DNA of 64,000 bases from Uloborus diversus (taxonomy: Eukaryota), in the NCBI RefSeq assembly GCF_026930045.1, contig NC_072740.1, positions 29,364,384 to 29,428,383 on the forward strand. The letters are read 5' to 3'. Positions 7,436 to 64,000 of the stretch are shown piece by piece. Both the position numbers and the translations under genes were made by a program. Below the pieces are notes generated by a model that worked only from the letters and a program-made list of their open reading frames with translations, was not told the origin of the DNA and searched no databases. Position 1 is the first letter of the stretch; every line of letters starts with the position of its first letter.

Positions 7436-7676
7436 AAAAGTAAAATAAGAAGTGACACAACGTCAAAAAAGCACAAATTACAGATTACTCCAGACACGAT
7501 CTTCGGCGTTACAAGGAAATGCCTTTTTCATTGCAAAAAAAATGAGCTTTCGGATGTCTTTTCCCTCCATAAGCTCATTTCTTTTGCGTTGAAAAAGGCG
7601 TTCCTTGTAACGCCGAAACACGTGTCTGCAGTAGTCTGCAATCGTGCTTTTTGACGTTGTTATTTTTTATTTTACA
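7436..7676. mobile_element. Foldback/MITE-like element, ~240 bp
   Basis: Left arm gtaaaataagaagtgacacaacgtcaaaaaagcacaa...cggcgttacaaggaa pairs with right arm ttccttgtaacgccg...ttgtgctttttgacgttgttattttttattttac (~80-bp imperfect arms). A second inner palindrome aaatgagctt...aagctcattt sits in the centre. Confidence 0.5.
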
Positions 7677-18347: not shown

Positions 18348-18622
18348 TGTTAGAAACTGAAGTGAAGAGAGGTCCAATTGAATGATAGATGTGTGCACGA
18401 GAAAACGTCAGAACACTGAAAAATAAAATTAAAATCTGTGGGAGTTTAAAAATGGTGTTGTAATGCACAAATGTTTTTGGCTCTGTAGTTTTCTGGTAGT
18501 TTAGCAAAATAAATGTCCTTTTTATGAAGAAAAGGTGAACTTCTTGGATTCCAGCACCACGCATTATTTAATGCAGTCCTGATAAAATAACTCATTGTTA
18601 GAATTTGAGTTTGTATTCAACA
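18348..18622 (+). repeat. BEL/Pao 5' LTR (275 bp)
   Basis: Identical by eye to 22789-23063; starts TGTTAG and ends TTCAACA. Confidence 0.9.
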
Positions 18623-18628
18623 TAATTT

Positions 18629-18646
18629 TGGCGTCCGCGACAGGAC
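18629..18646 (+). promoter_or_regulatory. Primer-binding site TGGCGTCCGCGACAGGAC
   Basis: Begins with TGG 6 nt after the 5' LTR; complementary to a tRNA 3' end (...GTCCTGTCGCGGACGCCA). tRNA identity not determined. Confidence 0.6.
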
Positions 18647-18659
18647 GGGTGCTTGGAAC

Positions 18660-22073: not shown

Positions 22074-22088
22074 ACTCCTGGCAAATCA

Positions 22089-22826
22089 GTGTTGAATTAT
22101 GAAGAGTTGAACGCATTGATATGTGATTGTGAATTTGTAATTAATTCAAGGCCTCTAACATACGGGTCGGAAAACCCTCAGGAGTTGATTCCTCTCACAC
22201 CTTCAATGTTTCTTATTGAAAACCGTAGTTTTGATGTTACAGATATTGGTCATGTGGATTTGCAAAGTCCAAAAAAGAGAAAAAGATATAGATATAAGCT
22301 GTTCAATGATTTAAGACAGCGTTTCAGAAAAGAATATTTAGGCCAATTAATTCAAAAACACTATGAGAAGCCAACCCGAGAGCCAAGAGTTGGCGAAATT
22401 GTTTTAATTGGCGACGATAATAAAAAACGCGTGTTTTGGCCTTTGGCGAAAATTATTGAATTGATTCCTGGACGAGATAAAAGGGTTCGCGCTGTTAGGC
22501 TCAAAACTCAAAATGGGATTTTTGTTCGTCCAGTGGAACGTGTTTACCCATTGGAGATACGTACTGATGATGAGGCGGTTGCAATTTCCGACAAAGCCAT
22601 GAGTGTGATGGAATCAAATCCTAAGGAAGGTGTTCAGAAGACTTCTGTTAAAAAGTGTTATCCTGATATTGTTCTGGAAAAATATACCAGATCTGGAAGG
22701 TGTGTGAAAGTACCAAAAAGACTGGATCTTTTAAATAATGAGTGTTACATGTTTGAGACCCTTCCCAGAGTCTCAAAGGGGGGAGGTATGTTAGAAACTG
22801 AAGTGAAGAGAGGTCCAATTGAATGA
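22089..22826 (+). CDS. BEL/Pao integrase C-terminal region (DUF5641-like) only; integrase zinc finger and DDE core absent
   Basis: 245-aa ORF reading LNYEELNALICDCEFVINSRPLTY...LTPSMFLIE...VGEIVLIGDDNKKRVFWPLAKIIELIPGRDKRVRAVRLKTQNG. This is the typical C-terminal tail of BEL/Pao IN. It starts only 16 nt after the gag-pol stop, so the ~250-300 aa IN catalytic region is deleted. The ORF runs into the 3' LTR. Confidence 0.75.
   Translation: MLNYEELNALICDCEFVINSRPLTYGSENPQELIPLTPSMFLIENRSFDVTDIGHVDLQSPKKRKRYRYKLFNDLRQRFRKEYLGQLIQKHYEKPTREPRVGEIVLIGDDNKKRVFWPLAKIIELIPGRDKRVRAVRLKTQNGIFVRPVERVYPLEIRTDDEAVAISDKAMSVMESNPKEGVQKTSVKKCYPDIVLEKYTRSGRCVKVPKRLDLLNNECYMFETLPRVSKGGGMLETEVKRGPIE
22775..22786 (+). 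promoter_or_regulatory. Polypurine tract AAAGGGGGGAGG
   Basis: Purine run 2 nt upstream of the 3' LTR start. Confidence 0.7.
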
Positions 22827-23063
22827 TAGATGTGTGCACGAGAAAACGTCAGAACACTGAAAAATAAAATTAAAATCTGTGGGAGTTTAAAAATGGTGTT
22901 GTAATGCACAAATGTTTTTGGCTCTGTAGTTTTCTGGTAGTTTAGCAAAATAAATGTCCTTTTTATGAAGAAAAGGTGAACTTCTTGGATTCCAGCACCA
23001 CGCATTATTTAATGCAGTCCTGATAAAATAACTCATTGTTAGAATTTGAGTTTGTATTCAACA
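22789..23063 (+). repeat. BEL/Pao 3' LTR (275 bp)
   Basis: Identical by eye to the 5' LTR; preceded by the PPT AAAGGGGGGAGG. Confidence 0.9.
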
Positions 23064-23435: not shown

Positions 23436-24484
23436 TTGTTGGGCTAAATGCCTTTATTTTTGGTTCTTGAAGGATTTCACCAATATTGTTTAAAAGAAAA
23501 ATCATTTTGTGACTTACCTTTTGCCATTCCGAGAGAAAACTTTGCGCGAAGAATCCCATCCACCTGCCGCCAACACTCAAATGTCCGAGTTTGAATCGGA
23601 AGTGTTTGGAAAACATGCGGCATGCTATGATTGGTTGTTGTCATTCGGCAGATGTCGGTAAACTTCCGAAAGAGCACGTGTCAATGACGTGATGAAATCA
23701 TGTTGAGGTGTTAAGTGCTGAATGCCAAATTAAATAAGAATTGTGTAACCGGCAAGCTGTGTTTTCTCCGGGTTGTGTTGTTTTGGCAATATGCAAATTA
23801 GGTAACGTCACATTGTTTCTGGAAAGGCCGAATCTGGCTATAAATACGCAGACCGGCAGGAGCTCGATCGCTTCGCTTCGTTTTTTTACTTCTACTCGTC
23901 TCCTCGTCTTGTGTTGTCTGTGTCCCGTGAACGTGTTCGTCAAATGTCATCCTAAATTTTTTTGCTATTGGCCTCTTGGTGAGGTCTGGTTTTTCCTGGA
24001 AAAGCACTGATGATGTTTTGAGTTTGGAACCCGCGTGTTGTGATGACGTCTATAAAAGCAAAGAGTTCTAAGTTTCCCTGATGTGGGTCTTTTGTTCTCC
24101 TGCGGAAGAAGATCGCGTCCATCCCTGGTATACCTTTCCCTGATGTGGTGAACTGTTGCTCACGCGGTGTGAATCGACCTGCCTGCAATTCGTGGAAATT
24201 GCCATGCTGTCCAACGACCGGTGAGGCGTCACCTTGGATCACCAACAGGACTTTTAATCCATGCATGGACTCATTGTAAGATCTCTTTTTCTAATTTTTC
24301 CCGGGGAACAAATCATTGTGTTGTAACCAATTTTCAATATGTGTCAAATAAATGTTTTTCAGTGTAAAGAATGATTCATGTTTTATTTTCTTCGGGCAGA
24401 CCACTACCTCAAATTTTTAGTTGGAAATGAGTTGCCTAATTTTCAGCTTAGCTGTAGGCCATAAACCTCAAATTATATCCAACA
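23436..24484 (+). repeat. copia 5' LTR (1049 bp)
   Basis: Matches the 3' LTR except for a few SNPs (e.g. t/c at 23750 vs 29068; g/a in gaggtctGgttttt vs gaggtctAgttttt; gatc vs gaac near 24240 vs 29557). Contains a TATA box and AATAAA. Confidence 0.9.
23839..23846 (+). promoter_or_regulatory. TATA box (TATAAATA) in LTR U3; same motif in the 3' LTR near 29156
   Basis: Sequence context ggctataaatacgcagaccggcagg. Confidence 0.5.
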
Positions 24485-24486
24485 GG

Positions 24487-24497
24487 TGGTAGCAGAG
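24487..24497 (+). promoter_or_regulatory. Primer-binding site TGGTAGCAGAG, complementary to the 3' end of initiator tRNA-Met
   Basis: Lies 2 nt after the 5' LTR. Eukaryotic tRNAi-Met ends ...CCUCUGCUACCA, whose reverse complement is TGGTAGCAGAGG. Confidence 0.75.
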
Positions 24498-24524
24498 TCG
24501 TGTGGTTGATCTGCCCGGAGAAAA

Positions 24525-26333
24525 TTGAATCATTTCTTTATTATGGAGAAAGATTATAGAAACGTTGAGAAGTTGGGCTCCCATAATTGGGCTACCTGGT
24601 CCAAAGATATAAAAATGGTGCTCATAGAAAGGGATTTATGGGAGATTACCCAAAAGAAACCAGAAGGGGAGTTAACTAGTGCTGACAGAAAAAGATGTGG
24701 CCAAGCTTTAGCCATCATCTATTTAAACTTGGAAAAAGATACAAAAAGGTTAATTGATAATTTGGAAGATCCTAATGAAGCCTGGAAAGCCCTTAAGGCA
24801 AATTTTGAACCCCCATCTTTGGCCAGAGTAGCCGCATTGTGGGAATCCTACTTCTCTTGCAAAATGCAAGAAGGTGAAACGGTGGGATTATTCGCTGCAA
24901 GGTTGGGGGGAATTTTTAACCAACTAGTCGAAAATGGATATATTATGGAAGAAAAACTCAGAACTTTTCAATTGATACGGTATCTACCTCCTAGTTTCAG
25001 CAGCATTGTTCAAGCCATCTACAGATGGGAAGGAGAGAAATTTACTTTCTCGAAAGTAAAAGATGAACTACTAGCTGAGGAAGGTAGGATTAGGTATTTG
25101 GCCGAAGAGCCTAATATAGAAAATTCGGCAATGTTTTCAAAACCCGGAAACTCCGGAATGGCAAATGGTAGGGGTAAATTTCTTGCTAAAAATAAAGTTT
25201 GTTACATTTGCAAAAAGAAAGGGCATATTGCGTCGAAGTGTTGGAGCCGTAATAAAGTAAAACAGGATAGGAATTTTAAATTTCAAGCCAAAGAAGACCC
25301 TCGGGCAGGAATGTTTTGTTCAGTAAATGAAAACGAAATTTCTGCAAACACTACCTACCCAAAATGTGAGGATACATGGCTATTGGATAGCGGCAGTACA
25401 TCTCATTTTTGTAGAGATAAATCGTTATTTGCCGAGCTAGAGCCTGTACAAAACACACAAATGGAGGTAGCTGTAGGAAATGTGAAGAGCCAGGTAGAGG
25501 GCATTGGGAAAGTGATTTTTAAAATTGAATCAGATGGAAAATTAGTTACCATCACATTGAATAACGTTTTCTATGCTCCAACACTGCGACGCAACCTAAT
25601 TTCTGGTTCTTGTATAGATAGACAGGGCTATAAGCTCAAATGGTTGCCCGGAAAGATCTGTGTCTTTAATCAAGAAAATGTTAAATTATTTACAGCAAAT
25701 TTAATAAATAAACTTTATCATGTTAAACCAAATTTTTATATTGATTGTGAACATGTTAATTATACCAAATTTTTTAAGACCAAGGACCCGTCTGAAGGGG
25801 CCAATATGGTCAGTATTGATATGGAAAAATGGCATAGGAGATTTTGCCATATAAATATGGAAAGTATCACCAAAACGAGTAAACTTGGTGCAGTCCAAGG
25901 ACTGGAGATTAAGAAGGGGCAAAAACCCAATTGTGACCCTTGTCAATTAGGGAAAATGAGGAAGTGCTCGTTTAAATCTATGCCAGAAAGGCGTACTAAT
26001 TCTGCACTTCAATTGCTCTACATGGACCTGATGGGACCCCTTCAGACCGAGTCCTTGGGGGGAAAGAAATATATTTTTATAATTATAGATGATTTCTCAA
26101 GAAAGTCATATGTTTTCTTTTTAAGAACAAAAAATGAGGCATTTAATGTTTTTGTAAATTTTCAAAAAAGGACTGAAAGATTCCTGAATTCAAAAATTTT
26201 GGCTATCCGTTCCGATAATGGAACAGAATTTGTTAACAAAGATTTTGAAAACTATCTCACCAATCAGGGAATAAAAATAGAGCGGACCAATTCCTACACC
26301 CCGCAAATGAACGGGGGTAGTAGAAAGGTATAA
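24525..26333 (+). CDS. copia Gag-protease-integrase (N-terminal part), ended by a frameshift
   Basis: 602-aa ORF. Gag: WATWSKDIKMVLIERDLWEI. CCHC: CYICKKKGHIASKC (~25200). Protease: LLDSGSTSHF (~25386). Integrase zinc finger: HRRFCH...CDPCQLGK. Integrase catalytic Ds: LLYMDLMGP and IRSDNGTEFV, then YTPQMNG. The frame is broken at 26313-26317 (GGGGG); the +1 frame continues NGVVERYNLTIMNGVRSML, which is the conserved NG.AER.NRT motif. Confidence 0.9.
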   Translation: MNHFFIMEKDYRNVEKLGSHNWATWSKDIKMVLIERDLWEITQKKPEGELTSADRKRCGQALAIIYLNLEKDTKRLIDNLEDPNEAWKALKANFEPPSLARVAALWESYFSCKMQEGETVGLFAARLGGIFNQLVENGYIMEEKLRTFQLIRYLPPSFSSIVQAIYRWEGEKFTFSKVKDELLAEEGRIRYLAEEPNIENSAMFSKPGNSGMANGRGKFLAKNKVCYICKKKGHIASKCWSRNKVKQDRNFKFQAKEDPRAGMFCSVNENEISANTTYPKCEDTWLLDSGSTSHFCRDKSLFAELEPVQNTQMEVAVGNVKSQVEGIGKVIFKIESDGKLVTITLNNVFYAPTLRRNLISGSCIDRQGYKLKWLPGKICVFNQENVKLFTANLINKLYHVKPNFYIDCEHVNYTKFFKTKDPSEGANMVSIDMEKWHRRFCHINMESITKTSKLGAVQGLEIKKGQKPNCDPCQLGKMRKCSFKSMPERRTNSALQLLYMDLMGPLQTESLGGKKYIFIIIDDFSRKSYVFFLRTKNEAFNVFVNFQKRTERFLNSKILAIRSDNGTEFVNKDFENYLTNQGIKIERTNSYTPQMNGGSRKV

Positions 26334-26343
26334 TTTAACCATA

Positions 26344-28620
26344 ATGAATGGTGTGAGGTCTATGCTCAAGGATTCTGGATTGGGGGATGAGTTTTGGGCT
26401 GAAGCCGCTCTTTGTTTCAACTATGTAAGGAATCGGACGGTAATAGGAAATATGGACAAGACCCCATTCGAGCTGTTTTCTGGACGTAAACCTTCAGTGA
26501 GGCACCTACGTATTTTTGGGTGTACTGCCTATGTAGGTCAGCCTAGGTCCAAACTAAAAAAGTTAGATATGAGGGCTACCAAGGGGATCATGGTCGGATA
26601 CGCCTTACGTACCAAAGGGTACAGAATCTGGGATCCTGAAACCAGAACAGTCACAGAAACTATTAACGTAAAGTTTAATGAAAATGAAAGATGGGGGGAA
26701 TTAAAAGTCCAAAATAAAAATGAGAGAAAATTTAACTTTATCAGGCCTATAAGTGAAGTTCAACTTGAACAGGAAATCCAGGAGAGTGTTGAGCAAACTC
26801 CCTGTGAAAAAATTAAATGGGTTAGAGAAGCCAAAAAGAGAAAGACCGGGGATAGGACTGATATTTATTATACAATTGCTGGTAAAAATAAAGTAAGATT
26901 AAATTCATTAAAACAGGTTCTAAAATATTGTAGTGAAAATAAAATAGAGTATAAACCAAAACTTTTTGACTTTTCATCTAAAAATCCAACAGTAGGGGAA
27001 ATCTGTGACGACAGTGAAAGTTCGGGAGAAAGTGAAGAAGCAAGTTTGGTAGAAATTTTTATACCGAACTCGTATAGGCAATGTATGGCTACCCCCGAGG
27101 TGGACAACTGGAAACTGGCCATGGAGTCTGAATTGGATGTCATTAACCAAAGAGAGGTGTGGGACCTTGTACCCCCACCAGAGGGGAAACCAATTTTGGG
27201 AAACAGGTGGGTCTACGACCTCAAGGTAAATGACAGGGGTGAAGTTGTAAGATACAAGGCCAGATTAGTTGTTAGGGGGGACCGTCAGTCAATTGAGTCA
27301 TATTCTGAAGTTTTCAGTCCAGTAATTGAGTTTTCACTTGTAAGAGTTTTCTTTTCTATTTTTATATGTCTTTTAAAATGGTGTCACTCACAAATTGATG
27401 TAAAAAATGCTTACCTGTATGCTGATTTAGAGGAACAAATCTACATGAGACAACCAGAGGGTTTTGTCAGTAAAAGCCACCCTAATTTTGTCTGTAAATT
27501 GAAGAAGTCTCTCTATGGACTACACCAGTCCGGAAGAAACTGGTTCTTAGAAATAGACAGTGTTCTTCGTGGTTTTGGTTTTCAAAAATTAAAAGGATGT
27601 AATTGTGTATACCATAGAGACAAAAATACTTTTCTTCTTATTTATGTAGATGATATAATAATTCTAGCAAAAAATGAAAATTTAATTAAAAAGGTAATCA
27701 ATGAAATTAAAAGTATGTATGATATTAAAGAAATGGGGAAAACCAGAAAGCTCCTGGGGATTGAATTTGTGGAAGATAAAAATAATCTTTTCATTCACCA
27801 AAGCTCTTATATTTCGAAGGTCTTGGAGTTATTCTCTGACTACTATGTGCCAAATTCAACCCTCCCAATCTCAAAGGGTACAGTTTTGTCGAAGGACGAC
27901 TGCCCGAAAACTGAGGAAGAAAAAAGGGAAGCAGAAAAGCTCCCATACAGAAATTTGTTGGGTTGTATGGCATACATAGCGGGGAAGACCCGACCTGACA
28001 TTTCGTATGCGGTGAATATTTTTTCCCAATTTCAAGCAAATCCCGGAAGAAAGCATTGGGATTTTCTATTAAGATTGCTAGGGTATTTAAAGCATACAAT
28101 ATCATACAAACTAAATTTAAGTTCAATCAATAGTGTAAATCTACGGGGATTTTCAGACTCCGATTACGCCGCTAATCGGGAGGATAGGGTCTCAATGGGA
28201 GGATCAATTTTGTGTATTGATCGGGTCCCGATTAATTGGAGGACATTTAAACATAAATGTGTTGCGTTATCCACAATGGAAGCAGAATATATTTCACTTG
28301 GTGAAACTGCAAAAGAAATGGTCTGGCTGAAGAGGATAATCACAGAAATAAGTGAATTAGATATTGAAAACCTCCAGCTTAGAGATACAATTATTTATTG
28401 TGATAACACTGCAACAATTGATTTTTCTAAGTCTCCCATTGAGAATTCCCGTACAAAACACATTGATGTAAGGTACCATTTTTTAAGAAATTTAATTGAG
28501 CAAAAGATTTTTTTGATTAAATATGTGAGGACAAATATAAACATCGCGGATATTTTCACTAAACCCCTATCTAAGAATTGTTTAAATAAACTTTGTAAAA
28601 TTATATTTAATTGGGATTAA
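26344..28620 (+). CDS. copia integrase C-terminal part, reverse transcriptase and RNase H
   Basis: 758-aa ORF. IN: TPFELFSGRKPSVRHLRIFGC. RT: WDLVPPPEGKPILGNRWVYDLK, YKARLVVRGDRQ, DVKNAYLYADLEEQIYMRQPEGF, KLKKSLYGLHQSGRNW and YVDDIIILAKN (~27643). RNase H: GFSDSDYAANREDR, STMEAEYISLGETAKE and IYCDNTATIDFSKSPIENSRTKHIDVRYHFLR. Confidence 0.9.
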   Translation: MNGVRSMLKDSGLGDEFWAEAALCFNYVRNRTVIGNMDKTPFELFSGRKPSVRHLRIFGCTAYVGQPRSKLKKLDMRATKGIMVGYALRTKGYRIWDPETRTVTETINVKFNENERWGELKVQNKNERKFNFIRPISEVQLEQEIQESVEQTPCEKIKWVREAKKRKTGDRTDIYYTIAGKNKVRLNSLKQVLKYCSENKIEYKPKLFDFSSKNPTVGEICDDSESSGESEEASLVEIFIPNSYRQCMATPEVDNWKLAMESELDVINQREVWDLVPPPEGKPILGNRWVYDLKVNDRGEVVRYKARLVVRGDRQSIESYSEVFSPVIEFSLVRVFFSIFICLLKWCHSQIDVKNAYLYADLEEQIYMRQPEGFVSKSHPNFVCKLKKSLYGLHQSGRNWFLEIDSVLRGFGFQKLKGCNCVYHRDKNTFLLIYVDDIIILAKNENLIKKVINEIKSMYDIKEMGKTRKLLGIEFVEDKNNLFIHQSSYISKVLELFSDYYVPNSTLPISKGTVLSKDDCPKTEEEKREAEKLPYRNLLGCMAYIAGKTRPDISYAVNIFSQFQANPGRKHWDFLLRLLGYLKHTISYKLNLSSINSVNLRGFSDSDYAANREDRVSMGGSILCIDRVPINWRTFKHKCVALSTMEAEYISLGETAKEMVWLKRIITEISELDIENLQLRDTIIYCDNTATIDFSKSPIENSRTKHIDVRYHFLRNLIEQKIFLIKYVRTNINIADIFTKPLSKNCLNKLCKIIFNWD

Positions 28621-28740
28621 ATGAGGGGGGCGTATCAAATTTTTGAACTGTTTTTCAAATGTATCTTTTGTAAATATAATATGAATGTAGTTAAATGTTT
28701 TTAATGTATATAATGTGTTTTTTTTGATGAAATTCCTTCA

Positions 28741-28752
28741 AGAGGGGGGAAC
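28741..28752 (+). promoter_or_regulatory. Polypurine tract AGAGGGGGGAAC
   Basis: Immediately upstream of the 3' LTR. Confidence 0.7.
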
Positions 28753-28753
28753 T

Positions 28754-29801
28754 TGTTGGGCTAAATGCCTTTATTTTTGGTTCTTGAAGGATTTCACCAA
28801 TATTGTTTAAAAGAAAAATCATTTTGTGACTTACCTTTTGCCATTCCGAGAGAAAACTTTGCGCGAAGAATCCCATCCACCTGCCGCCAACACTCAAATG
28901 TCCGAGTTTGAATCGGAAGTGTTTGGAAAACATGCGGCATGCTATGATTGGTTGTTGTCATTCGGCAGATGTCGGTAAACTTCCGAAAGAGCACGTGTCA
29001 ATGACGTGATGAAATCATGTTGAGGTGTTAAGTGCTGAATGCCAAATTAAATAAGAATTGTGCAACCGGCAAGCTGTGTTTTCTCCGGGTTGTGTTGTTT
29101 TGGCAATATGCAAATTAGGTAACGTCACATTGTTTCTGGAAAGGCCGAATCTGGCTATAAATACGCAGACCGGCAGGAGCTCGATCGCTTCGCTTCGTTT
29201 TTTTACTTCTACTCGTCTCCTCGTCTTGTGTTGTCTGTGTCCCGTGAACGTGTTCGTCAAATGTCATCCTAAATTTTTTTGCTATTGGCCTCTTGGTGAG
29301 GTCTAGTTTTTCCTGGAAAAGCACTGATGATGTTTTGAGTTTGGAACCCGCGTGTTGTGATGACGTCTATAAAAGCAAAGAGTTCTAAGTTTCCCTGATG
29401 TGGGTCTTTTGTTCTCCTGCGGAAGAAGATCGCGTCCATCCCTGGTATACCTTTCCCTGATGTGGTGAACTGTTGCTCACGCGGTGTGAATCGACCTGCC
29501 TGCAATTCGTGGAAATTGCCATGCTGTCCAACGACCGGTGAGGCGTCACCTTGGAACACCAACAGGACTTTTAATCCATGCATGGACTCATTGTAAGATC
29601 TCTTTTTCTAATTTTTCCCGGGGAACAAATCATTGTGTTGTAACCAATTTTCAATATGTGTCAAATAAATGTTTTTCAGTGTAAAGAATGATTCATGTTT
29701 TATTTTCTTCGGGCAGACCACTACCTCAAATTTTTAGTTGGAAATGAGTTGCCTAATTTTCAGCTTAGCTGTAGGCCATAAACCTCAAATTATATCCAAC
29801 A
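28754..29801 (+). repeat. copia 3' LTR (1048 bp)
   Basis: As above; preceded by the PPT AGAGGGGGGAAC. Confidence 0.9.
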
Positions 29802-38804: not shown

Positions 38805-39540
38805 TATGTCCCAAAAAAAAACGAAAGTTTATATTTCAAGTCACACACCCTGTAATATTTTTCCTTTTAGGTCAAAACAATTGTAATAAAAAGTTTCATG
38901 TAATTTGAACAAGGGCAACCTCCGACTTTTTGCGCCTGAAAGTGTAAACCAGCCATGTTTACTACGCTGAAAAAAAAATTAAGATTTCCTTTAAAAAATG
39001 GATTTTTCCGATTTATCTTTTTAAAAATTACACATACATTTCAATAAAATATCACGCTCAAAAATCATATGCAAACACATTTTCAAAAAAGTAATAAAAA
39101 ATAATATATTTAAAATGAAAAATTTAACTTAAGCTAGAAAAAAATCCATATTTTGAGTACTAGGTAGGAGATTTAAATATTAAAACAGAGCAAAAATTTT
39201 ATTTAGTGCTAATTACCAAGTTTACTGTTGATATTTTTCTTCTTGAAATATATCTCACATTTTTATAAAAATGTATAGAAAAAATAGATATTTTTAAGAC
39301 AATTACAAATTTTAGGCTTTCTGTTGGCCACCTAAATATTTTTTAATTCGGATAAATATTTTTGTGGTACATGTAGGTACATGTACACAACGTTTTATCA
39401 ACATGAAACTTCAAACTTCCGAAGAAAAAAAAAACTTTCAAATTATATGAAACTTTTTTTACAATTGTTTTGATCTAAAACCAAAAATATAAGAAGATGT
39501 GCAACTTGAAATATCGACTTTCGTTTTTTTTTTTTTAGGG
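38805..39540. mobile_element. Foldback element, copy 1 of a family also present at 42425-43360
   Basis: Ends aaaaaaaaacgaaagtttatatttcaagt and acttgaaatatcgactttcgttttttttt are inverted. The interior (ccgactttttgcgcctgaaagtgtaaaccagcc...) is shared with 42530-43330. Confidence 0.6.
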
Positions 39541-42203: not shown

Positions 42204-44237
42204 TGCTGAACCAGTGGTTGGAAAAACTACATTTTTTTGGTAGCGAACTACAACTACAGCTACTTTCTTACAAATGTAGTTAACTACAACTACAACTACT
42301 TTTTTAAAAAAGTAGCAACTACAAACTACTTTTGAAATGTAGTCGCTACTTCGCTACTTTTCAAAAAATAAATAAATAAACAAAAATAAAAAATAAAAAT
42401 GAAATAAAATAAAATAAGTGGGTTTAGTGTGTCCCACAAAAAATGAGTCGATTTTTCAAGTCATACCCTCTTATATTTTTCCAGTTATGTCAAAACAATT
42501 TGAAAAAATGTTTCATATAATTTGTTGAATAACGGCAAACCGTGCCGACTTTCGTCTGAAAGTGTAAACCAGCACTTGTATGCTAGCTCCCACCTCCCCT
42601 CCAAAAAAAAAACTTTTTAAGAATTCGAAATTCCTGTTGATAAAACGTTGCCCCTAAACCCTACTTCCCACATGTACCACAAAAAATATTTATTTAAATT
42701 AAAAACCATTTGGATACCCCACACTTGGCCTAAAAATTATAATTTTCTTTAAATAATTGATTTTTTTTCCTATTCATCTTTTAAAAATTTAAACATGAAT
42801 TTAAATAAAAAATCAAGTTCAAAAATTATTAGCGAGCTCATTTTCAGATTAACATTTTCAAATGAGTAACAAAAAAATAATACATTTAAAATGAAAAATT
42901 CAACTTAACCCTGAAAAAATCCATATCTTTGAGTACTATGTGGAAGACTTCAATATTGCAGGAGAGCAAAAATTTCTGTTTAACGCTAATTACCTACTTT
43001 ACTGTTGATATTTTTCAGCTTGGTAATTTCGTAAAATTTACCAAAAATTTTAAAAAATATGTATCGAAAAAAAAAACAATTTTTTGAAGAAAGTTATAAT
43101 TTTAGGCCAAGTGTAGGGGATACCTTAATGTTTTCTAATTTGAATAAATGTTTTTGTGGTGCATGCGGGGTATAGGGAGGCAACGTTTTATCAACAGAAA
43201 TTTCGAGTTTCTAAATTTTTTTTTTTTTTTTTTAATTTGGCACTGGTGCAGTTGTTCAAATTATATGAAACTTTTTTACAATTGGTTTGATGTAAGCGGG
43301 AAACTATAAAAGGGTGTGCGACCTGAAAAATCAATTTTCGCTTTTTGGCAGACACACTAATGCAAACACACACGGTAAGAGGATTGAATGAAAAAAGGTT
43401 TAGATTGACAAATTAGCTCATTTCAACATGGAACATTACTAAGAATTATCTATTATTTATTCCCCCCCCCCCCAAATGTCCGTTATTCTTCTCTTATATA
43501 ACACTGTAATTCTCGTATTCATTGTAAGCCGGCAAGGGCAATTCAATATCATCCTCATCTATAACATTTACAGTAGCTTGAAAATTTAAGCTTCACGAAA
43601 TATATGTATTATATATTTTTTTTCTTTTCAACTTTAGGTTTGTTCATATAAAATTAACGAAATTTTCAATTCGCAAAATCATCGATATCTTCATTTTCGC
43701 GAAAATAAATGTTTTTACAGTGTTGGATCTCTTTGAAGTTTAAAACGTTCATCCACGGGACATTCCCGACAGTCAGAAAAAAACAAAGGAGTTACTAAAT
43801 TGACGGTTATCGCTAATTCATATATACTTTTCTTTTTAAGTCAAGCTCTATATTCAATACAAATTTTGGCGAACTATGAAAATTACAATTGCAAACGAAC
43901 TAATGGCGTCAAACAGATAGAACGTATGGCGTCAAAATGATATGCCAGAGGTCACCTCGTATTTTTATAAGCCTTATTTCTCATTGCATCCGTTGATGTA
44001 CTCGCGTAAGATTTGCACGAGTCAAATTCGTTTGAACCGAATTGTTTCTTTAAAAAAAAAATCTTTATTAAAAAGTAGTTTTCCGAAATCGCTACTAACT
44101 ACTATTTTTTGTATCGAACTACTCACTACACTACTCTTTTTTAAAAGTAGTGCGCTACACTACAAACTACTGAAAAATGTAGCTACTACAGTAGCGTCGC
44201 TACTTGTAGCGCGCTACTTCCAACCACTGTGCTGAAC
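42204..44237. mobile_element. Foldback-type element with ~170-bp (CTAC)n/(GTAG)n-rich inverted arms enclosing family copy 2
   Basis: Left arm 42204-42370 (tgctgaaccagtggttggaaaaactac...tagcgaactacaactacagctac...) against right arm 44075-44237 (...gtagctactacagtagcgtcgctac...ttccaaccactgtgctgaaca). The inner foldback at 42425-43360 is homologous to 38805-39540 and carries its own IR (42640-42760 vs 43090-43210). Confidence 0.6.
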
Positions 44238-44989: not shown

Positions 44990-45650
44990 CGTGTACCTAT
45001 TTGAACCGAATATTTGGTGCATCCCGGCACCCAATGTTCCAACGCCCAATATTCCCGGCGCCCAATGTTCCCGGCGCCCAATATGCCCAACGTTCAATGT
45101 TCCCGGCACCCTATATGCTAGGCGCCCAAGTGACGGTGCCTAATCTGCGGCGCCCAATCCTCTCTCAAAACATGAAGGGGTGGGCGACTATTCAACATGA
45201 TGCCTGCCCAGACCGTCAAACCAGCACCGCCATAATGGTCAATTTCGCGGATATTGGAGGGCAGATAGCGGGTTCCTGCTTCTATCCACATGAACGCAGG
45301 ACAAGAATAGTCGGTTAAGCTGCCCCCGGGACCCGATACGTGCCCTCCAATATCCACAAAATTTACCATTATGGAGGAGGAGGTTTGACGGTCTGGGCAG
45401 GCATCATGTTCGATGGCTGCACACCCCTCCACGTCTTTGAGAGAGGCTCTGTGACAGTTGCGAGGTACAGGGATGTGGTCTTGGAGCCCTATGCTCACCT
45501 CTTGAGGGGCGCTGAGTTAATTTTTAGCCCTGAGTTAATTTTAATGGATTTTAATACAAGGCCACATATAGAGCTCTTGCAGTCGACGAATTTCCTGAAG
45601 GAGAGAATATTCACTGGATGGATTAGCCAAGCAGATCTCTAGACTCCAAT
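44990..45650. pseudogene. Tc1-like (DD34E-type) transposase remnant arranged as two head-to-head partial copies
   Basis: Plus copy 45340-45642: PSNIHKIYHYGGGGLTVWAGIMFDGCTPLHVF...ILMDFNTRPHIE...WISQADL, i.e. the GGGSVMVWG...DNARPH...SPDL block. Minus copy ~45266 down to 45118: PSNIREIDHYGGAGLTVWAGIMLNSRPPLHVL. A ~70-bp perfect palindrome (45198-45266 vs 45339-45405) encodes HDACPDRQTS..IMVNF.DIGG on both strands. Confidence 0.6.
45030..45140 (+). repeat. 16-bp minisatellite (CGCCCAATGTTCCCGG)n, ~6-7 units
   Basis: Reads cgcccaatattcccgg cgcccaatgttcccgg cgcccaatatgcccaa cgttcaatgttcccgg caccctatatgctagg cgcccaagtgacggtg. Confidence 0.7.
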
Positions 45651-46259
45651 CCTATAGAACATGTGTGAGACTCTCTTGGGAGTGCAATAGCAACTTGCAA
45701 CACCCCTCCGGGGACCCTCCATAGCTTGATGACTTTTTAATTGTTCTTGACTCCTTGAAAATAATTAAATTTAGCTTTGAAATTTAATGAAAAGTGCTTC
45801 AATTTCATTTCTTATCAAGTGTATAAAATATTAATTGTCCGAATTGGCAAGATGCCACTTTATAAATACATGTTTTCTAAATGTGTATACCAAGCCCGGA
45901 TTACCCAATAGGCCAACCTAGGCCCTGGCCTAGGGGCGTAAGCCAAAAAGGGCGCATATCCAGGAGGAGAAGAAAATGAACAGCTCATTAGAAAAATAAA
46001 AGGAAAATGGCATGCTAGTATTTGGACAGTAAAAATACAGCTAGAACTGATTGGGACCTTACCACTGAGCAGAAAAAAGCAATTAGAGGAGAAGGGGCGT
46101 AATGCTTGAGTCTAGGTACTGTTTCTGGTCAAAACAGATAATTTTCTAGGGGCGCCGACTCCGAGGGCGCTGCGATGCTCCAGCAACCCCCCCCCCCCCA
46201 ATATTTGCGGGGGTGCCGGGCAACCCCACTATCAGCAGAAAACTGATGAAAACCTTTTT

Positions 46260-46300
46260 GTATGGCCTCTTTTTCTACAAGCAGAAAAAAGAGGCCATAC
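46260..46300. other. Perfect 15-bp stem hairpin with ~10-nt loop (gtatggcctcttttt ctacaagcag aaaaaagaggccatac)
   Basis: Direct reading. Confidence 0.6.
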
Positions 46301-47739
46301 AAAAAGGGACGAATTTTTAAATATTTAGCTAAGCTTAACAAAAAGAACAAATTATACTGTTGTGTTTTTGTTCCTAAACTACTTGTGTTTTGATTCTCAC
46401 TAAAATTTTCTCTGCTTTAATTTAATTCATTCTATTTTACTTTATTTTATTTTCATTTATTTATTTTTTTCACGTAAAATTTTTTTGTGGTAAAAACCCG
46501 AAGTAAAATAAGATATTTTCCACCTAGTGTTTCTGTTTATAAAACTGAAGCACATTTTCTTGAGAGTTATACGCTCTGAAAAATTGCCCTTGTTTGGTCC
46601 ATTGTGCTCGGTGTTTGAGCACCCCCACTGGTTTTCAAAACCCGGTGACACTAAATTTTCAATATCTTTGATTTGAACAATGATTTCAAAATTCGGTAAA
46701 GCTATGATATAGAAAGTGTTCAATGTAAAAAACTTGTTCATGAAACAATTTTTCTCTTGATGTCTTTAAATCATGTCAATAAGTATATGTTTTGCAATTA
46801 ATAATTTATTAGTTCATGTTTAGTTTTGACAGTCAATAATTAGCGGCGCCCGAAGCTTAAATTTTTGAAAGGATGAAATTATTAATTTACCGAATGAAGT
46901 TTCAAATTTTACGGAATGACAAAACACGAGTATGCATAATTGCACGTGTAGCAAAATCTAACGAAAACAGACAATAGACATCCCTTTAAAGAATATTTTT
47001 ATGTTGTCTTCAAACTGTCAGACATTGTTTGACGCATAAGGAAATTTTGGGGAGTTCACGGTGACCTCCTGCGGCCTTTGCCAATAATATCCCCTATTTT
47101 GTACACAAAATATTCACCATAGTCTGCTTTAGTTCTCCGCACTAAGCATTGCATACAAGTTTCCTAATAAATAATTTCTTTGACACAATTTTCTATCTTT
47201 TCCTTTATAATTACCTCTGTTATTGGGTTTCACTTCCAACATATTATTTTTCTGAATATTTTTTTTTTTTCAAAACATCATCTAGATCACAATAAAGTTG
47301 ATAAAAATAAAAGAAAAATTAAATATATTTACAGAGAGAGACCAGCAGTTTTAAATATTTTCAAGGTAAAAAATGAAACTATCAAGGAATTCAAGAGTCA
47401 TGATAACTAAATGTAAATAAAAAGGGGAAAAAATACTTCAGATATCACTGCTAAATATCATCTCAGCTCAAACCGGTAAAAGCTTTTTCCTTGGGCTACA
47501 GACATTTGTTTTCCAAACAGATAAAAATTTTGAGGCGGAAAATTTGAAAATTTCACAATGGAAAACCAAAACAGTTAAATGTTTTTGAAAAAGAAAAATT
47601 GAGGCAAGATGTTTGATAACATGTTTTAAGAAATGAATGAAAATTTCGGGACGTAGCAATGTGGGGAGGGAGGCGTTTTATGAGCCTAATCCCATCATGT
47701 TACGTCACCAAAGGTAACCTAAAATTGCGAATTTTATAA

Positions 47740-49212: not shown

Positions 49213-49740
49213 TCCCTTGATATTTTTGTAGTTCCAAACATCCTTTATATGTCCACAAAATGCAGAATTATACATAATATATTTCAAAATTTTCTCCGGG
49301 GGAAAAAACCCCGGGCCCCCTAAAATTTGCTGGTATTCTGTAGCCCCCTTAAAGAAGGTTGCCGCCAATGATCGAAAGTGATTTTTGACGGTGTTTTTGG
49401 TACCCAGCGAGCACAAATTTTTCTGTAACGCAACAGTTCTAGAGCTATAGAATGTAGGGACGATCTTGAAACTTCTGGAAATTGCATCGATAATTCACTT
49501 ATCATGAATCTTCGTTTCCTTAACCGCTTTGTCAACTCGTTGAACAAGGTCGTCTGTAGCCACAGACTTGCGCCCCAGACCCCCTTCATCATGCACATTA
49601 TTAATAATAATATTGTTAATAACAACATTAAAAAATAAATTTTCAGTGCATTTATTATTCTGTTAGTTTCTTTTATCTCTTTTAAAATGAAGCATAACTG
49701 GTAAAAGTAATAGATCCAGTGTTTCTTAGAATATGGCAAG
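49213..49740 (-). pseudogene. mariner-like transposase N-terminal HTH fragment within a truncated element
   Basis: Minus ORF segment (~49517-49364) FMISELSMQFPEVSRSSLHSIALELLRYRKICARWVPKTPS matches the mariner HTH block (..IA..L.VS...V...L...GM.K.CA.WVP..L). The terminus 49219-49330 is shared with the 55350 MITE. Confidence 0.45.
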
Positions 49741-49779: not shown

Positions 49780-50240
49780 GGTTACGTTCGTCGACCTCGA
49801 CCGGCAGTTACCGGTCGGTTGATCACATGACAGTTATGACTTTAGACGAACAGCACACAGGTGAAAAAATATTTATTAGTGGCCAAAAAAGTCACACGCT
49901 TCAATCAACCAATCAGTTTAATTTGCAGTCTACCGGTAGATAATAGAACGCTGCAGTTAGTCACCAATCGACCAGTCGAGGCTTACGTTCGACGACCTTA
50001 ACCGGTAGCTACCGGTAGGTTGATCACATGGCAGCTATGACATCAGTGGTTACCTACCGGTTGCGTACCATCAAATGCTTCATGGAACGCTTGCGGTTGA
50101 TCACCGGTTACTTGCGCAGACACGGCGCAGACGAATAACACGCAGGAGAAAAGTACTTATAATTGGTCAAAAATGTCACGTGGTTCAATCAACCAATTAA
50201 ACAGCTTAAAGTGTGGTCGAACGGTAAATCACCCGGTGCG
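49780..50240 (+). repeat. GC-rich tandem duplication (2 units, ~200 and ~285 bp) carrying CCAAT-like and E-box-like motifs
   Basis: Unit 1 ggttacgttcgtcgacctcgaccggcagttaccggtcggttgatcacatgacag...gtcacacgcttcaatcaaccaatcag. Unit 2 gcttacgttcgacgaccttaaccggtagctaccggtaggttgatcacatggcag...gtcacgtggttcaatcaaccaatta. Confidence 0.6.
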
Positions 50241-54660: not shown

Positions 54661-55349
54661 TAATTAAAATATAACTTTCAGCCCGAATGAATTAAAATCG
54701 GTATCTATCGTTATAAAATGGCCTAAATTTTCATTTAATGAAATAAAATAAAATTGCATGCATGTTCCTCATTGAGAAAAAAATTGGTGTATTGGGAAAG
54801 GTATAGATTTTTTTTTCCTTTTAAATTTAAAATAGTTGCTCTTACAAAGTTAGAACAATACTGTAAAATTGTACTATCTAGTACTAAATTTCAGAGACTG
54901 GAAAGGGCAAATGAAATGCCTTAAAAAATCTTAATTGTTCTTGGGTCCTTGAAAAGAATTAGGTCAGTCTTTGAAATTCCTAAGCAAAGCGTACTTCAAT
55001 TTCATTCATTATCAAGTGTATAAATTATGAATTGTCCAAATGGGCAGCATGTTACTCTCTTTTTACCTATTTTCTAAATCTGTACATCATTTCTTTTAAA
55101 GCATTTTTTACTACTGATCATTTTGTATTGAACTCGTCGTTGTATTTGTGGGTGGGTTGGAGGCGTGATCAAAAAGTAATTGAATTGAACCGACAGTCGA
55201 TGTAAGCAAATAACAATGCATAATCATCTGCTCTCCCTTGCTTTTTCTCTCTGAGTATACCGCTGTCATTGATTTGTCGACCCAAAAACAGTTTTTACTG
55301 GGTATTATCGTAATTTCCAAAAGAGTATAATTACCTCTTTTCCCCCCAA

Positions 55350-60200: not shown

Positions 60201-61107
60201 ATTTCCAGCTTACATTTTGTTTTTGCACATATTTCCCCCCTAATATTTTTATTAGAATTTTGGGTAATAGTCCAAATTTATTTTAATTTGAACAGGCATT
60301 AGTCCCTATTAGTTCAGATTGGCAATGTTCTACTGTGGCTTTGTTTTTCATACATTATAGTTAATACAGTATAACAGTTTAAAAGTGATAAATGTAAAAT
60401 GTATTTGGTGTGGCATAAAAGATATTTTTATTAAGTTGTATTAAGTAAAGAGATTCAATAGCAGTTTTATTACTTATGCTGTAAAATATACCTTACAGTA
60501 TTATTTTTTTAAGCATTTCCTGTTGTGCCTGCAATGGATTTGAAAAATGTGTATCTGAAGGAGACTCATTTGACATCAACTAAGAACTATATTCTTGAGG
60601 AATCAACTAAAGTAATTAGAGACTACATAGAGAAATATAAAGAGCTTGTTGATAAAAGGTATGGACTAGAGTATGTTATTATTATTATTATTATAACAGT
60701 TGTACCCCAATTTAACGAACCTCTATTAAACAAATTTCACTATTTAGCGAATTTTTTTTCTCTTTTATATTAACTTTAGATTTAACTCTTTTATATTAAC
60801 TGTTTCAATGGCTGTATCCATGTCATCGAAAAAGGCTGATTATTAAAGAAAATGATTAATAGAAAATTTCTATAGAATGAGTTAAAGCGGTGTATTAATT
60901 GTATTATTATGCACAATATGCTAAAATGACAATTATTTTTCATTAACTATGACCTTTGTTACTATGTTGTAGTAAGACTAAATATGTGAGTTGTTTTTGG
61001 GAAGTAGAATTTTCCAATTTTCATATTTAAGAAATATCTGATTGAAAATAAATTCGAAAGATGTTTTGCTATGTGCTTAAAAAATTGGATCTACTCAGGG
61101 CTGTGCT

Positions 61108-61900
61108 TAGGGGTGGTAAACTTCAAAATGAAGATGAATACATTATTTTGTCTAATATATTTACAAATTTTCGAAGTGACTATTTTTAGCCTTAACACAG
61201 AGCTTAAAAAATTTCACAAAAACTTGGGCCGTGGGCTGCAGCTCACTTACTGATAATTTATCCCATTCCTTGTATAAGGGTTTCCTTAGGAAAACCAAAG
61301 TTACATGAGGTTTGGCACACACACCCTTGTTTAATAATCATTCAGGTTCAAATCTAGGAAATACTTTTGGCTTCTTGAGCTCCAATAAAGTTCCGAAAAT
61401 GTGTCTAGTACCAATCTTAAGTGCTTTTGGCTCTGTGTGCAGGTGCTAAATACTGTTGGAAGGTCCATCTTTTGTTTCCAAAGAACTTTTGCAACCAAGA
61501 TAAGTCAGCACCTTCCAAAATGAGTTTGTGATATATTTCTTGATTAATCTATACCCCTTGATCAACAATAACAAGTGGTGTTTTCCCACCAGCACATATC
61601 CCACCCCAAACCATTACTTATTGGGGTCATTGACATCATTTAACAATACAAGAAGGTCTTGGAGACAAGGGTGTGTGCTAAACCTTATAAAACTTTGGCA
61701 TCCCTAACAAAATCCTTTTGCAAGGAATTGAATAAAATACTAGTAAGTGAGTTGTGGCCCATAGCCGAAAATTTGGGACACGTTTAAAGCTCTGTATTAA
61801 GGCTAAAGGTAGCCACTTTGAAAATTTGTAAATATGTTGGATAAAATAATGTATTTATATTAATTTTGAAGTTTGGTTGTAATATTTTCATTAGCATTAA
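61108..61900. pseudogene. Tc1/mariner-superfamily transposase remnant organised as a palindromic element with ~150-bp inverted ends
   Basis: Minus strand 61640 down to 61160 reads WTFQQYLAPAHRAKSTQDWY*..FPRFEPE*LLNKGVCAKPHVTLVFLRKPLYKEWDKLSVSELQPTAQVFVKFFKLCVKAKNSHFENL*, i.e. the FQQD.APAH.AK.TQ.W...RVC.KP...L..L...L...W......I...VKAKGG.T.Y block. Plus strand 61640-61845 repeats the C-terminal tail (TRVCAKPYKTLASLTKSFCKELNKILVSELWPIAENLGHV). 61108-61260 is the inverted repeat of 61747-61900. Confidence 0.55.
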
Positions 61901-64000
61901 AATTATAATGTATCATGTTTGTCCAAGTTATTTCTTGTCCCCCTGTTTATCAGTGATCTACAAGTCAATAAACTCCAACTGCATTCTTTCAGGTACTATC
62001 ATCAGTGTTAGAAAATATTTCTAACGATCACTCTCCAATGGCTAATTCTGCTGCTCAAATAATGGGCAATATGTATGATACTCCAGGAACAGGAGTGAAT
62101 GAAACAAATCTGGACACATTGGCTTATGGCCAAAAACCTAAATGGTGAACTAGGGAAATTTCGTATGGAAAAAAGGCCTTGGCGTATAAAACAAAGTACA
62201 TTTCCTGTTGATGATACAAAATTAATATATTAATCTTTTAGTTAAATGGCTTTCTTAACTAACCGTAGTACTTGCTGTTGCTAAAAATATTGGTCTTGAT
62301 TTATGCTCATTTGTTGTGTAGTAATAATTTGATCAATCTGATTTTTGACTTTTTAGAAGCTTGCAATCACTTTGAAATGTCTTGTTCCTGACAAATGATA
62401 AAACTGTTTTTGTGATTTTTCGGTAATTTTTGAAAGCCTGTGCAACAACACAATTTAGGAGGGAAGGTGCCTTAATCACTTCCCTCTACCTGTGAATCTG
62501 TACCTGTAAACAGTGGATTTTTGTTTATCATTGTCAATTTCTTCTTATAATTAATTTCAGTTAACTATTTCCTATTAGGTGGGAAACGAATCAGAATTTG
62601 TTGACGAAATTTCCTGTGGAAGAAGTGGATGCATATGCAGAGCATAGGCCAAAAAGGCTACGATCCTCAAAAGAGATATTTGCAGGTCAGTTAAATTTTA
62701 CTATGATGTTAGGATAATGTATTTTCATTAAACATAATAAATTGGACTGCATGTCCAAAATATGTTGCATAAAAAGCACAAGCTAACTACAACACAGTGA
62801 CACATTCCTGGAAAAACTTGAAAAATAAAAACTTCTCTGAAAAAATTGTGTTATGGCATTTTTTCGAATTTCTTTTTTGAATGAAATCAGCAGTGATTTT
62901 TGATTGAATAAAATAATGAAAGCGTCCTATCTTTAGTTTTTGTATAATTATTGCATTGATTCTCATAATTATAAGGTCAGCAGGTGCTATAAGGACGGCA
63001 TGAAAGCTATACAGTCGACGCTCGATATAACGACCATCTCCGTGCCAGAAAAAAAGGTCTTTATAATGAGTGGTCATTATAAGAGATAGAATTTTTTAAA
63101 AATATACGCATGCATCATGTATGTTCCGTTGTTCCAATACAATTGGCACTTTTTTAAAGATTCCAGTAAAATGTCCAAATTATTTTTTATCATGGGATTT
63201 TTCATTTTTAATTATGGGTGCAAAATATGACAAAATATTTCTAAGTAGAAAATATAGGAAAAATTGTATTACAGTGCTTACAAATCATTTATTTTCTGAA
63301 GATAAAATCAGAAAGAGTTGCTTTCCTTTGCACATATGATTTTTGCAAAACATAATTTTCCATTCAAAGAAACTAAAAAGTCTCTCGAGCATTTGAAACA
63401 TTTTTCATACTGGGAACTTTGGTCTCAATTTCTTCTTCTTCATCTGATCATGATATATTAATTTGTTTTTGTGCACAATATCGAGAGGTACTTCATTTTC
63501 TGACAGACACGTGTTTGACACATTATAAATCATAATTGATTTTAGCATAACAGTTAAAGTTTAACACTTCTACCAATTTCATTTTTTTTTTAGAAATTTT
63601 ATACATCATTTCATCTTTTTGATCGAAATTTTCATCTTGGATTGCCTGAAAAATCGTTTAAGCATTTTTCCTTTGCTTTTTAAAATCAACATGGTGGAGG
63701 CAATTCTTGATGGTCTTTTCTGAATTCCATGCTGATTTAGAAAGATGCAAAGCTGTAAGGATACCCACTTTGTAATCTTCACCTTCTTCCAGTCCGTAGA
63801 CGGTAATGTAGGTCATTTCAAGTTACATATTAGTAGCATTGGAAAAAACACCAGGAATAGTGTGAATCGCTGAATTCGGTCGCTGTATTGGATTAAATGA
63901 TGCAGAGCGGTCGTTATAGCGGAAGCAAATTAACATAGAGTTCATTGGAATAAAGTTGGGACTATTACCACTGGTCGTTATAATGGATTGGTCTTTATAA

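Follow-up and report, generated by a model that had tools for sequence, protein, structure and literature searches.

We find that the interval 44990-45750 of a 64,000-nucleotide stretch of the Uloborus diversus genome (contig NC_072740.1, positions 29,364,384 to 29,428,383; hereafter the window, whose first letter is position 1) is probably a decayed copy, lacking both ends, of a non-autonomous DD34E Tc1-like transposon family of araneoid spiders. One transposase segment is present here as two diverged, inverted copies (...GTRYLPSNIREIDHYGGAGLTVWAGIMLNSRPPLHVLRE on the minus strand and ...GTRYVPSNIHKIYHYGGGGLTVWAGIMFDGCTPLHVFERG... on the plus strand) that are joined 5' end to 5' end, and the same junction is found at unrelated loci in two other spider genomes, those of Araneus ventricosus and Trichonephila clavipes. 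The window copy, referred to below as locus 1, is itself an immobile and dead relic with no demonstrated function.

An inverted-repeat search placed the arms of locus 1 at 45167-45276 and 45328-45437 (110 nucleotides (nt), 82% complementary, with 51 nt between them), while gapped alignment gave a left arm at 45159-45276 and a right arm at 45328-45446, with 99 matches, 19 mismatches and a single gap (83.9% identity, Kimura two-parameter distance 0.18), the differences comprising 10 transitions and 9 transversions. The blastn self-match of this arm pair (E = 1.5e-46) is far above chance, and the original prediction was right that two diverged transposase copies face each other at this site. The perfect palindrome of about 70 bp that it described between them does not exist, however: the longest exact inverted match within 44990-45650 is only 29 nt (45194-45222 and 45382-45410, the latter forming the exact core of the right arm), its halves lie 159 nt apart, and the 51-nt centre (45277-45327) is not self-complementary. 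This spacer is unique sequence of the minus-strand copy, mostly encoding its residues 16-29 (SLTDYSCPAFMWIE), as indicated both by protein mapping and by DNA alignments with normal and rearranged relatives. The peptide HDACPDRQTS..IMVNF.DIGG, said to be encoded identically on both strands of the central sequence, can indeed be read on both strands, but it is the antisense reading of each arm (that is, of ...HYGGGGLTVWAGIM) and is not central; being merely each arm's antisense translation, it is trivial and adds nothing beyond the inverted repeat. A blastn self-comparison of the 64-kb window detected no further copy of the locus 1 segment.

Residues at locus 1 are numbered after P0001 and P0003, and the copies were delimited by mapping Araneus and Trichonephila Tc1 proteins on the window by tblastn. 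The copy with the longer start occupies 45159-45321 on the minus strand and covers residues 16 to ~70 (SLTDYSCPAFMWIEAGTRYLPSNIREIDHYGGAGLTVWAGIMLNSRPPLHVLRE) of the Tc1-like DD34E transposase. In tblastn its residues 16-67 or 16-78 map from 45321 to 45166 or 45133, respectively; DNA homology to the other arm ends at 45159, and the extension to residue 78 was judged to be an over-extension into a neighbouring minisatellite. A tblastn match that carried the minus-strand copy of the related A. ventricosus locus L004 (described below) to residue 10 was likewise discounted, as running on into mirror sequence. The copy with the shorter start lies at 45322-45734 on the plus strand and covers residues ~29/30 to 162 of the same transposase, in two tblastn segments (residues 30-111 at 45325-45579 and residues 107-162 at 45567-45734). 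It has decayed, with a frameshift near 45567-45579, two tryptophan codons changed to stop codons, an 18-nt internal duplication (CTGAGTTAATTTT at 45512 and 45530) and a truncated 3' end. The two fragments abut at 45321/45322 with no filler sequence between them, and both lack the first catalytic D (residue 11) as well as any element terminus. Of the catalytic triad, which has D-34-E spacing in the homolog P0001, the second D has been replaced by F (LMDFNTRPH) in the plus-strand copy and only the E of NPIEH is kept.

The best homologs of the conceptual translation of the plus-strand copy are Tc1-like DDE_3 proteins of spiders (E = 3.5e-43, 62-65% identity), originating from A. ventricosus, T. 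clavipes and Nephila pilipes. The A. ventricosus homologs match Pfam PF13358 (DDE_3), whereas the window fragments themselves are too degenerate to give a Pfam match at E <= 0.01. Judged by this DDE_3 transposase homology, locus 1 is a DD34E Tc1-like member of the Tc1/mariner superfamily. No remnant of the 3' untranslated region (UTR) or of the terminal inverted repeats (TIRs) of the family was detected in the window, and locus 1 has neither TIRs nor a target site duplication (TSD). More widely, no outer inverted repeat above shuffled controls was found around locus 1, or around a second inverted arrangement at 61118-61943 (locus 2, discussed below), and searches for Rfam families and tRNAs gave no match.

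That the arrangement is a property of a repeat family is indicated by its junction. A word-index protein search with the 126-residue open reading frame (ORF) that spans it (45118-45498, minus strand) returned only ordinary transposases, matching the sense half alone, and so hinted at a unique event. This hint was overturned by an exhaustive HMMER search of the same ORF against 1.84 billion representative proteins, which yielded 413 hits. Sense-only matches among these begin at query residue ~57-76 and antisense-only matches end by ~61, and only two real proteins cross the junction: P0069 (GBL75435.1 of A. ventricosus, annotated 'TRP-gamma'; query residues 1-76) and P0143 (GFW36366.1 of T. clavipes). 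In BLASTP the window ORF aligns with P0069 without gaps over 75 residues (48% identity, E = 1e-23), and with P0143 at E = 2e-16. At the junction itself, marked here by a slash, ...HDAYPNHQTSAAIVVSFSDVAGAVAGPGS/VITNDSQRTFMWREPG in P0069 corresponds to ...HDACPDRQTSSSIMVNFVDIGGHVSGPGG/SLTDYSCPAFMWIEAG in the window, and P0143 is alike. Four other candidates were rejected, namely P0129, in which the supposed junction is a splice of two exons 2 kb apart, and P0060, P0062 and P0070, which are unrelated repetitive proteins despite their high HMMER scores.

At the corresponding genomic loci, L004 in A. ventricosus and L005 in T. clavipes, the junction (antisense residue ~30 to sense residue 16) lies within one continuous genomic reading frame, and each locus has its own diverged inverted repeat. 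The DNA of the window, L004 and L005 is colinear through the junction, with an anchor-to-anchor spacing that is identical in the window and L004, and the position of the junction agrees within 1-2 nt on both sides across the three species. Normal copies (L006 and L002), in contrast, align on the sense side only, and upstream of this they contain the expected coding sequence ...FTDESRF. The flanks of the three loci have no mutual similarity and the window does not contain the TRP gene present at L004, so that the three loci are not orthologous. Thus several non-orthologous sites share one junction, as expected for amplification from one progenitor, which makes the arrangement a trait of a dispersed repeat family rather than a local accident. 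The original prediction had left undecided whether the arrangement was ancestral to a repeat subfamily or a unique local rearrangement, and our results favour the former.

A unique local event would involve either two opposite Tc1 insertions joined by a deletion, or a one-off inverted duplication of a dead copy by fold-back or template switching. Consistent with such an event, each family has a single copy in the 64-kb window, transposable elements are densely packed in the region, the word-index search found no junction-spanning protein, and two Logan contigs with relatives of the element (L001 and L002) hold ordinary copies with no internal inverted repeat. However, the same junction at unrelated loci of two other species contradicts this explanation for locus 1, the duplicated sequence is wholly internal to the transposon, and a complete element with two 3' ends exists at L004, so that we regard a purely local origin as extremely unlikely. 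A chimeric or fold-back read could also have produced a false palindrome, and palindromes are a known class of assembly artefact; this was the case that the original prediction named as its own refutation. Yet artefactual palindromes are near-perfect, while the arms here differ at 16% of sites at locus 1 and at 20% at locus 2, the spacer is asymmetric, and the junction is also present in two independent assemblies of other species. Given this 16-20% divergence and the recurrence of the junction in independent assemblies, an assembly artefact at locus 1 is excluded, and we attach a negligible probability to an explanation of this kind.

The overall architecture of the family is apparent from L004, where the inverted-repeat segments form a colinear series from the centre to both ends, and where the ~255 nt at the 3' end of the normal element L006 can be aligned with either outer end. 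The left terminus lies at position 9490 of L004 (TA/CACTG, TA/CACTGATG..., TA/CACTGATGTTT, the slash marking the element boundary), with the TA beside the terminus seen at this left end, and a decayed right terminus lies at ~10790. The complete element is ~1.3 kb long and consists of two 3' portions placed head-to-head, with arms of at least 640 nt; it ends in two 3' termini and lacks a 5' end, the DNA-binding domain and the first catalytic D. Truncated forms of this structure are seen in the window and at L005, the latter also with an insertion of ~785 bp, whereas in the normal relative L006 the 5' half is intact and contains no antisense coding fragment. Together with the shared junction, this complete element with two 3' ends favours one of the alternatives originally offered, that of a repeat subclass derived from transposase genes.

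A family origin raises the question of whether the junction arose once or repeatedly, and several observations weigh against our interpretation or against the single origin that we prefer. The junction is known from just three loci in three genomes. The two arms of one locus resemble each other (84% identity in the window and 81% in L005) more than arms of the same type do between species (59-69%), and the L004 arms have private changes in common (LFRY.VGL) that neither the window copy nor normal proteins show. Moreover, the L005 arms have less similarity to the window arms (0.59-0.69) than to L006, a normal copy of the genome that they come from (0.76 / 0.68). Because arms cluster by locus or genome, and not by arm type, a single origin requires gene conversion between arms. 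Long inverted repeats can undergo concerted evolution through palindrome gene conversion, and this suffices to explain the similarity of the arms. A further point is that the window copy has neither TIR nor TSD, so that its arrival by transposition is something we infer.

These patterns would also be expected if each genome had fused its own Tc1 copies head-to-head at a structural hotspot that dictates the breakpoints, the junction then being a mechanistic signature. There is a precedent in the mariner lineage Rpmar17 of the bug Rhodnius prolixus, in which many independently rearranged copies have their breakpoints in one region (PMC4678618). However, breakpoints vary between the Rpmar17 copies but are constant here, with no more than 1-2 nt of difference on either side among the three species, and the anchor spacing is the same in the window and L004. 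Furthermore, no inverted microhomology that might act as a hotspot, or otherwise explain the junction, is visible in the present-day sequences, which counts against either account. We consider recurrent formation unlikely, and on the coincidence of breakpoints a single origin of the junction, with concerted evolution of the arms, appears to be the favoured explanation.

The 5' part that was lost contained the 5' TIR, the domain for DNA binding and the first catalytic D. The junction would have been made once or rarely through aberrant repair of a double-strand break or gap. This could have happened if a strand being synthesised inward from the 3' end switched template or folded back, or if a deletion joined two neighbouring copies in inverted orientation. 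Hairpin resolution, as originally proposed, is not supported; Tc1/mariner excision is not known to proceed through hairpin intermediates. An element with two 3' ends would possess two transposase-binding termini, which would allow it to be mobilised in trans by autonomous relatives and dispersed, and the window copy may have arrived by such transposition before decaying. In other elements identical ends can be an advantage, as for Mos1, where a transposon carrying two right ends is mobilised in vitro 26-fold better than the natural arrangement, and similar end preferences have been reported for Mboumar-9 and Sleeping Beauty (PMC4505599).

The closest parallels are Rpmar49 and Rpmar17, the 'Deleted/Recombined' mariner lineages of R. 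prolixus (Filee et al. 2015, PMC4678618), in which the 3' part stands in place of the 5' part. Rpmar17 comprises 227 rearranged copies, while Rpmar49 was suggested by Filee et al. to originate from a deletion between two inverted neighbouring copies (PMC4678618). As in the spider family, the 5' part of these elements is replaced by an inverted 3' part, there is transposase homology in the rearranged portion, and the elements are non-autonomous, ~0.9-1.3 kb long and bounded by long inverted ends. Abortive gap repair is the proposed origin, and Rpmar49 additionally resembles the spider family in having several dispersed copies with one common junction. There are also differences, given that the spider family is DD34E Tc1-like and the Rhodnius lineages are DD34D mariners, that the arms of the complete spider copy measure at least 640 nt compared with 221 nt, that the spider junction lies inside the catalytic core and is common to several species, and that the window copy has lost both termini. 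By its structure, the locus 1 family belongs with the recombined, two-3'-end type represented by Rpmar49 and Rpmar17. It is consequently a tidy further example of a rearrangement already described in a blood-sucking bug, and not a new kind of element.

Other categories of non-autonomous element fit less well. [quoted passage not shown] Simple deletion derivatives, however, retain both original ends in their normal relation and have no inverted duplication. MITEs are shorter (typically under ~800 bp), lack coding remnants, reach high copy numbers and possess TIRs and TSDs, whereas the complete relative of locus 1 is ~1.3 kb long and almost all transposase-derived and the window copy has neither TIR nor TSD, so that the label of MITE, which had also been proposed, is not appropriate. 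The description of locus 1 as foldback-like is similarly misplaced. Foldback elements (Drosophila FB and Galileo) do share inverted arms that are very long relative to the element, yet FB arms consist of tandem subrepeats while those of locus 1 are transposase coding sequence, and the sole tandem array at the locus (45022-45158) is one-sided and absent from the related loci L001-L006.

It had also been claimed that the same arrangement recurs at 61108-61900 in a different Tc1/mariner lineage, and the topology of locus 2 is indeed the same, with 5'-truncated copies fused and 3' ends directed outward, in a maT-like DD37D element. Its arms lie at 61118-61330 and 61665-61874 (213 nt, 80.5% identity, with a 334-nt spacer). 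With residues numbered after P0043, a long copy on the minus strand (61118-61665) covers residues 89-259 and ~50 nt of 3' UTR, tblastn mapping residues 89-186 to 61665-61372 and residues 204-259 to 61337-61170. This copy is degenerate, with stop codons and frameshifts, and no 3' TIR was recognised for it. A short copy on the plus strand (61664-61943), delimited by tblastn and TIR comparison, covers residues 204-259, the 3' UTR and the 3' TIR, with residues 204-243 mapping to 61656-61775 and residues 236-259 to 61751-61822. The two copies join at 61664/61665. The 3' TIR (61915-61943, ...TTTGTCCAAGTTATTTCTTGTCCCCCTGT) lies beyond the repeat and matches the TIR of the relative L003 (CAGGGTGACCAGAAAAAAC.GAGACAAAC) at ~26/32 positions. 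At the other side, 61104-61117 (CAGGGCTGTGC...) was considered as a left TIR, but only its first 5 nt and last ~7 nt resemble the family TIR. The best homolog, P0043 (E = 5.9e-44), has D-37-D spacing, and a Y has taken the place of the second D in the window copy (FQQYLAPAH). On the basis of transposase homology and the family TIR, locus 2 can be classed as maT-like DD37D.

Locus 2 is most likely the same class of derivative as locus 1, although this extension of our interpretation has weaknesses of its own, since no second copy with its junction was found and an ordinary alternative exists. Among 80 metagenomic maT-like relatives, none has P0043 transposase matches on both strands and none shows the locus 2 junction. 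The alternative is that locus 2 is an ordinary internal-deletion derivative of a maT-like element with long TIRs that already reached into the C-terminal coding region, its inverted fragment being the normal long TIR of the 5' end. Many of the 80 relatives have TIRs of 100-350 nt, and in two of them, L051 and L053, the TIR includes C-terminal codons: the L051 arm starts at residue 252 of a near full-length ORF, while the L053 arms (351 nt, 97% identical) cover residue 310 to the end. Additionally, L081, L082, L084 and L086 are simple 5'-internal deletions between long TIRs. On the other hand, L003, the closest full-length relative available, has TIRs of ~30-37 nt and a coding region free of inverted repeats, the 3' TIR in the window matches this short TIR, and the left arm of locus 2 has no recognisable terminus, so that the arm length is not comparable with a full TIR. 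We therefore treat the long-TIR explanation as a reasonable, though not the preferred, account of locus 2, and of locus 2 only.

Both L051 (1151-1361/2181-2391) and L053 (444-793/1484-1834) are maT-like DD37D elements on JGI metagenome contigs. The TIRs of the former are at least 211 nt long with 90.5% identity, and the TIRs of the two together include the last 26-84 transposase codons, resulting in an antisense C-terminus at the 5' end of a near-complete or 5'-deleted element. More generally, long-TIR members of Tc1/mariner (the aphid LTIR-like DD40-41D elements, PMC5490172; the Bari elements with long inverted repeats (LIR), PMC4877112; and L051 and L053) resemble the locus 1 family in having inverted ends of hundreds of nucleotides, and L051 and L053 also in that a long TIR with C-terminal codons places an antisense transposase fragment at the 5' end. 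They differ in that a complete transposase gene is kept between the TIRs, or in being simple deletions of such elements, whereas nothing upstream of residue 16/30 is left in the locus 1 family.

Whether the inverted repeat at locus 1 could act on other transposons is a separate matter, and one that is compatible with the structural explanation given above. Under this possibility locus 1 would be a functional hairpin-RNA 'killer' locus, from which read-through transcription would produce long double-stranded RNA (dsRNA) and then small RNAs that silence autonomous copies. The 306-nt stretch of locus 1 is predicted to fold as one long hairpin (-181 kcal/mol, z = -16) and the arms cover the region encoding the catalytic core. 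In maize, inverted duplications of Ac fragments produce dsRNA and small interfering RNAs (siRNAs) and lead to heritable silencing of Ac (bioRxiv 10.1101/2020.01.07.897926). However, any inverted repeat folds in this way, the stem is 84% paired with just 29 nt perfectly paired, and there is no match in Rfam. Furthermore, the arms show the decay of neutral sequence: each has ~6 private amino-acid changes, and the ratio of transitions to transversions is 10:9. A silencing function for locus 1 is, in our opinion, quite improbable.

The parallel in maize is with Mu killer and Ac killer (Ack1), which are likewise inverted duplications of an internal, partly coding transposon segment that give a long hairpin if transcribed (PMC1563492; bioRxiv 10.1101/2020.01.07.897926). 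Ack1 originated by alternative transposition with re-replication (bioRxiv 10.1101/2020.01.07.897926). Each is a single locus at which dsRNA, siRNAs and heritable silencing have been demonstrated, whereas the spider arrangement has a stem paired at 84% and belongs to a dispersed family. By extension of this analogy, head-to-head transposase elements might be a self-spreading source of hairpin RNA, in which insertions subject to read-through would yield dsRNA against the catalytic core of their own autonomous family; we think it very unlikely that they are. Were it so, a rearranged derivative would be a mobile 'killer' helping spiders, and perhaps other arthropods as well (compare Rpmar17 and Rpmar49), to shut off invading Tc1/mariner elements, and the homogenisation of the arms would be maintained because a well-paired stem is the one that gets diced.

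For the window itself, a dead transposon relic is an ordinary finding. Its wider relevance is that derivatives with a mirrored back half are not peculiar to Rhodnius mariners: orb-weaving spiders have them in a DD34E Tc1-like family, and a maT-like family probably has them too. This suggests that Tc1/mariner elements have a general way of giving rise to non-autonomous parasites whose two ends are identical and possibly preferred. There are also implications for annotation, as such copies give long antisense-plus-sense ORFs that are called as proteins or first exons. In A. ventricosus, the first ~76 residues of GBL75435.1 ('Transient receptor potential-gamma protein') derive from the antisense-plus-sense reading of the rearranged Tc1 element at L004 10001-10230 (BGPR01000007.1), and this first exon reflects either an artefact of the gene model or the exonisation of a transposon. 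A predicted protein of 96 residues from T. clavipes, P0163 (GFV03766.1), joins antisense Tc1 sequence (...CAAIQRDAYPDHQASS...FSDIGG) to a sense mariner-like segment (DEAHFWLNGYVNKQN...), and is, at the protein level, a further chimeric junction of transposable elements.

The left arm of locus 1 is directly abutted and truncated by a minisatellite (45022-45158) with a 16-nt period and about 7-8 copies of a unit approximating TCCCGGCGCCCAATAT. Tandem Repeats Finder reported 6.8 copies at 45022-45129, and the GGCGCCCAAT motif continues to 45158, being enriched at 45022-45158 only (6 matches compared with 1.15 expected). No such array is present at L001-L006, the first six related loci (L007-L086, from metagenomes, were not searched for it), and the minisatellite thus lies outside the transposon family, although it may be an outgrowth of decaying Tc1 sequence. 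On the other side, an unrelated repeat of ~150 nt (45737-45887) starts 2 nt past the truncated plus-strand copy; it has a second copy at 54931-55084 (78% identical) and is probably a fragment of another mobile element. Farther to the right, a GC-rich, repeat-like stretch contains a poly-C run (~46188-46200) and a perfect 22-nt stem with an 11-nt loop (46253-46307; CCTTTTTGTATGGCCTCTTTTT / AAAAAGAGGCCATACAAAAAGG).

The window as a whole is AT-rich (31-41% GC) and full of eukaryotic transposable elements. Two long terminal repeat (LTR) retrotransposons lie side by side at 18348-23063 and 23436-29801: a Pao element (Peptidase_A17, DUF1759, DUF5641) whose 275-bp LTRs are 100% identical, and a Copia element (Retrotran_gag_2, rve, RVT_2) whose 1049-bp LTRs are 99.7% identical. 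Both are young, far younger than the Tc1/mariner relics of the window. Long inverted repeats also occur at 37615-37834/38205-38424, 38813-38909/39437-39532 and 42424-42790/43045-43360 (74-89% identical), with 38974-39529 and 42732-43346 belonging to one family (71% identical), and elements with long inverted repeats appear to be common in the source genome. At 7435-7680 lies a non-coding palindrome of 246 nt, which is 79% self-complementary, lacks homology to transposases and may be a small element of the foldback or MITE type. Finally, in an ORF on the minus strand at 49320-49739, which has no Pfam match at E <= 0.001, the C-terminal part (...ISELSMQFPEVSRSSLHSIALELLRYRKICARWVPK) resembles the N-terminal helix-turn-helix of mariner transposase, and direct repeats lie nearby at 49782-50229.

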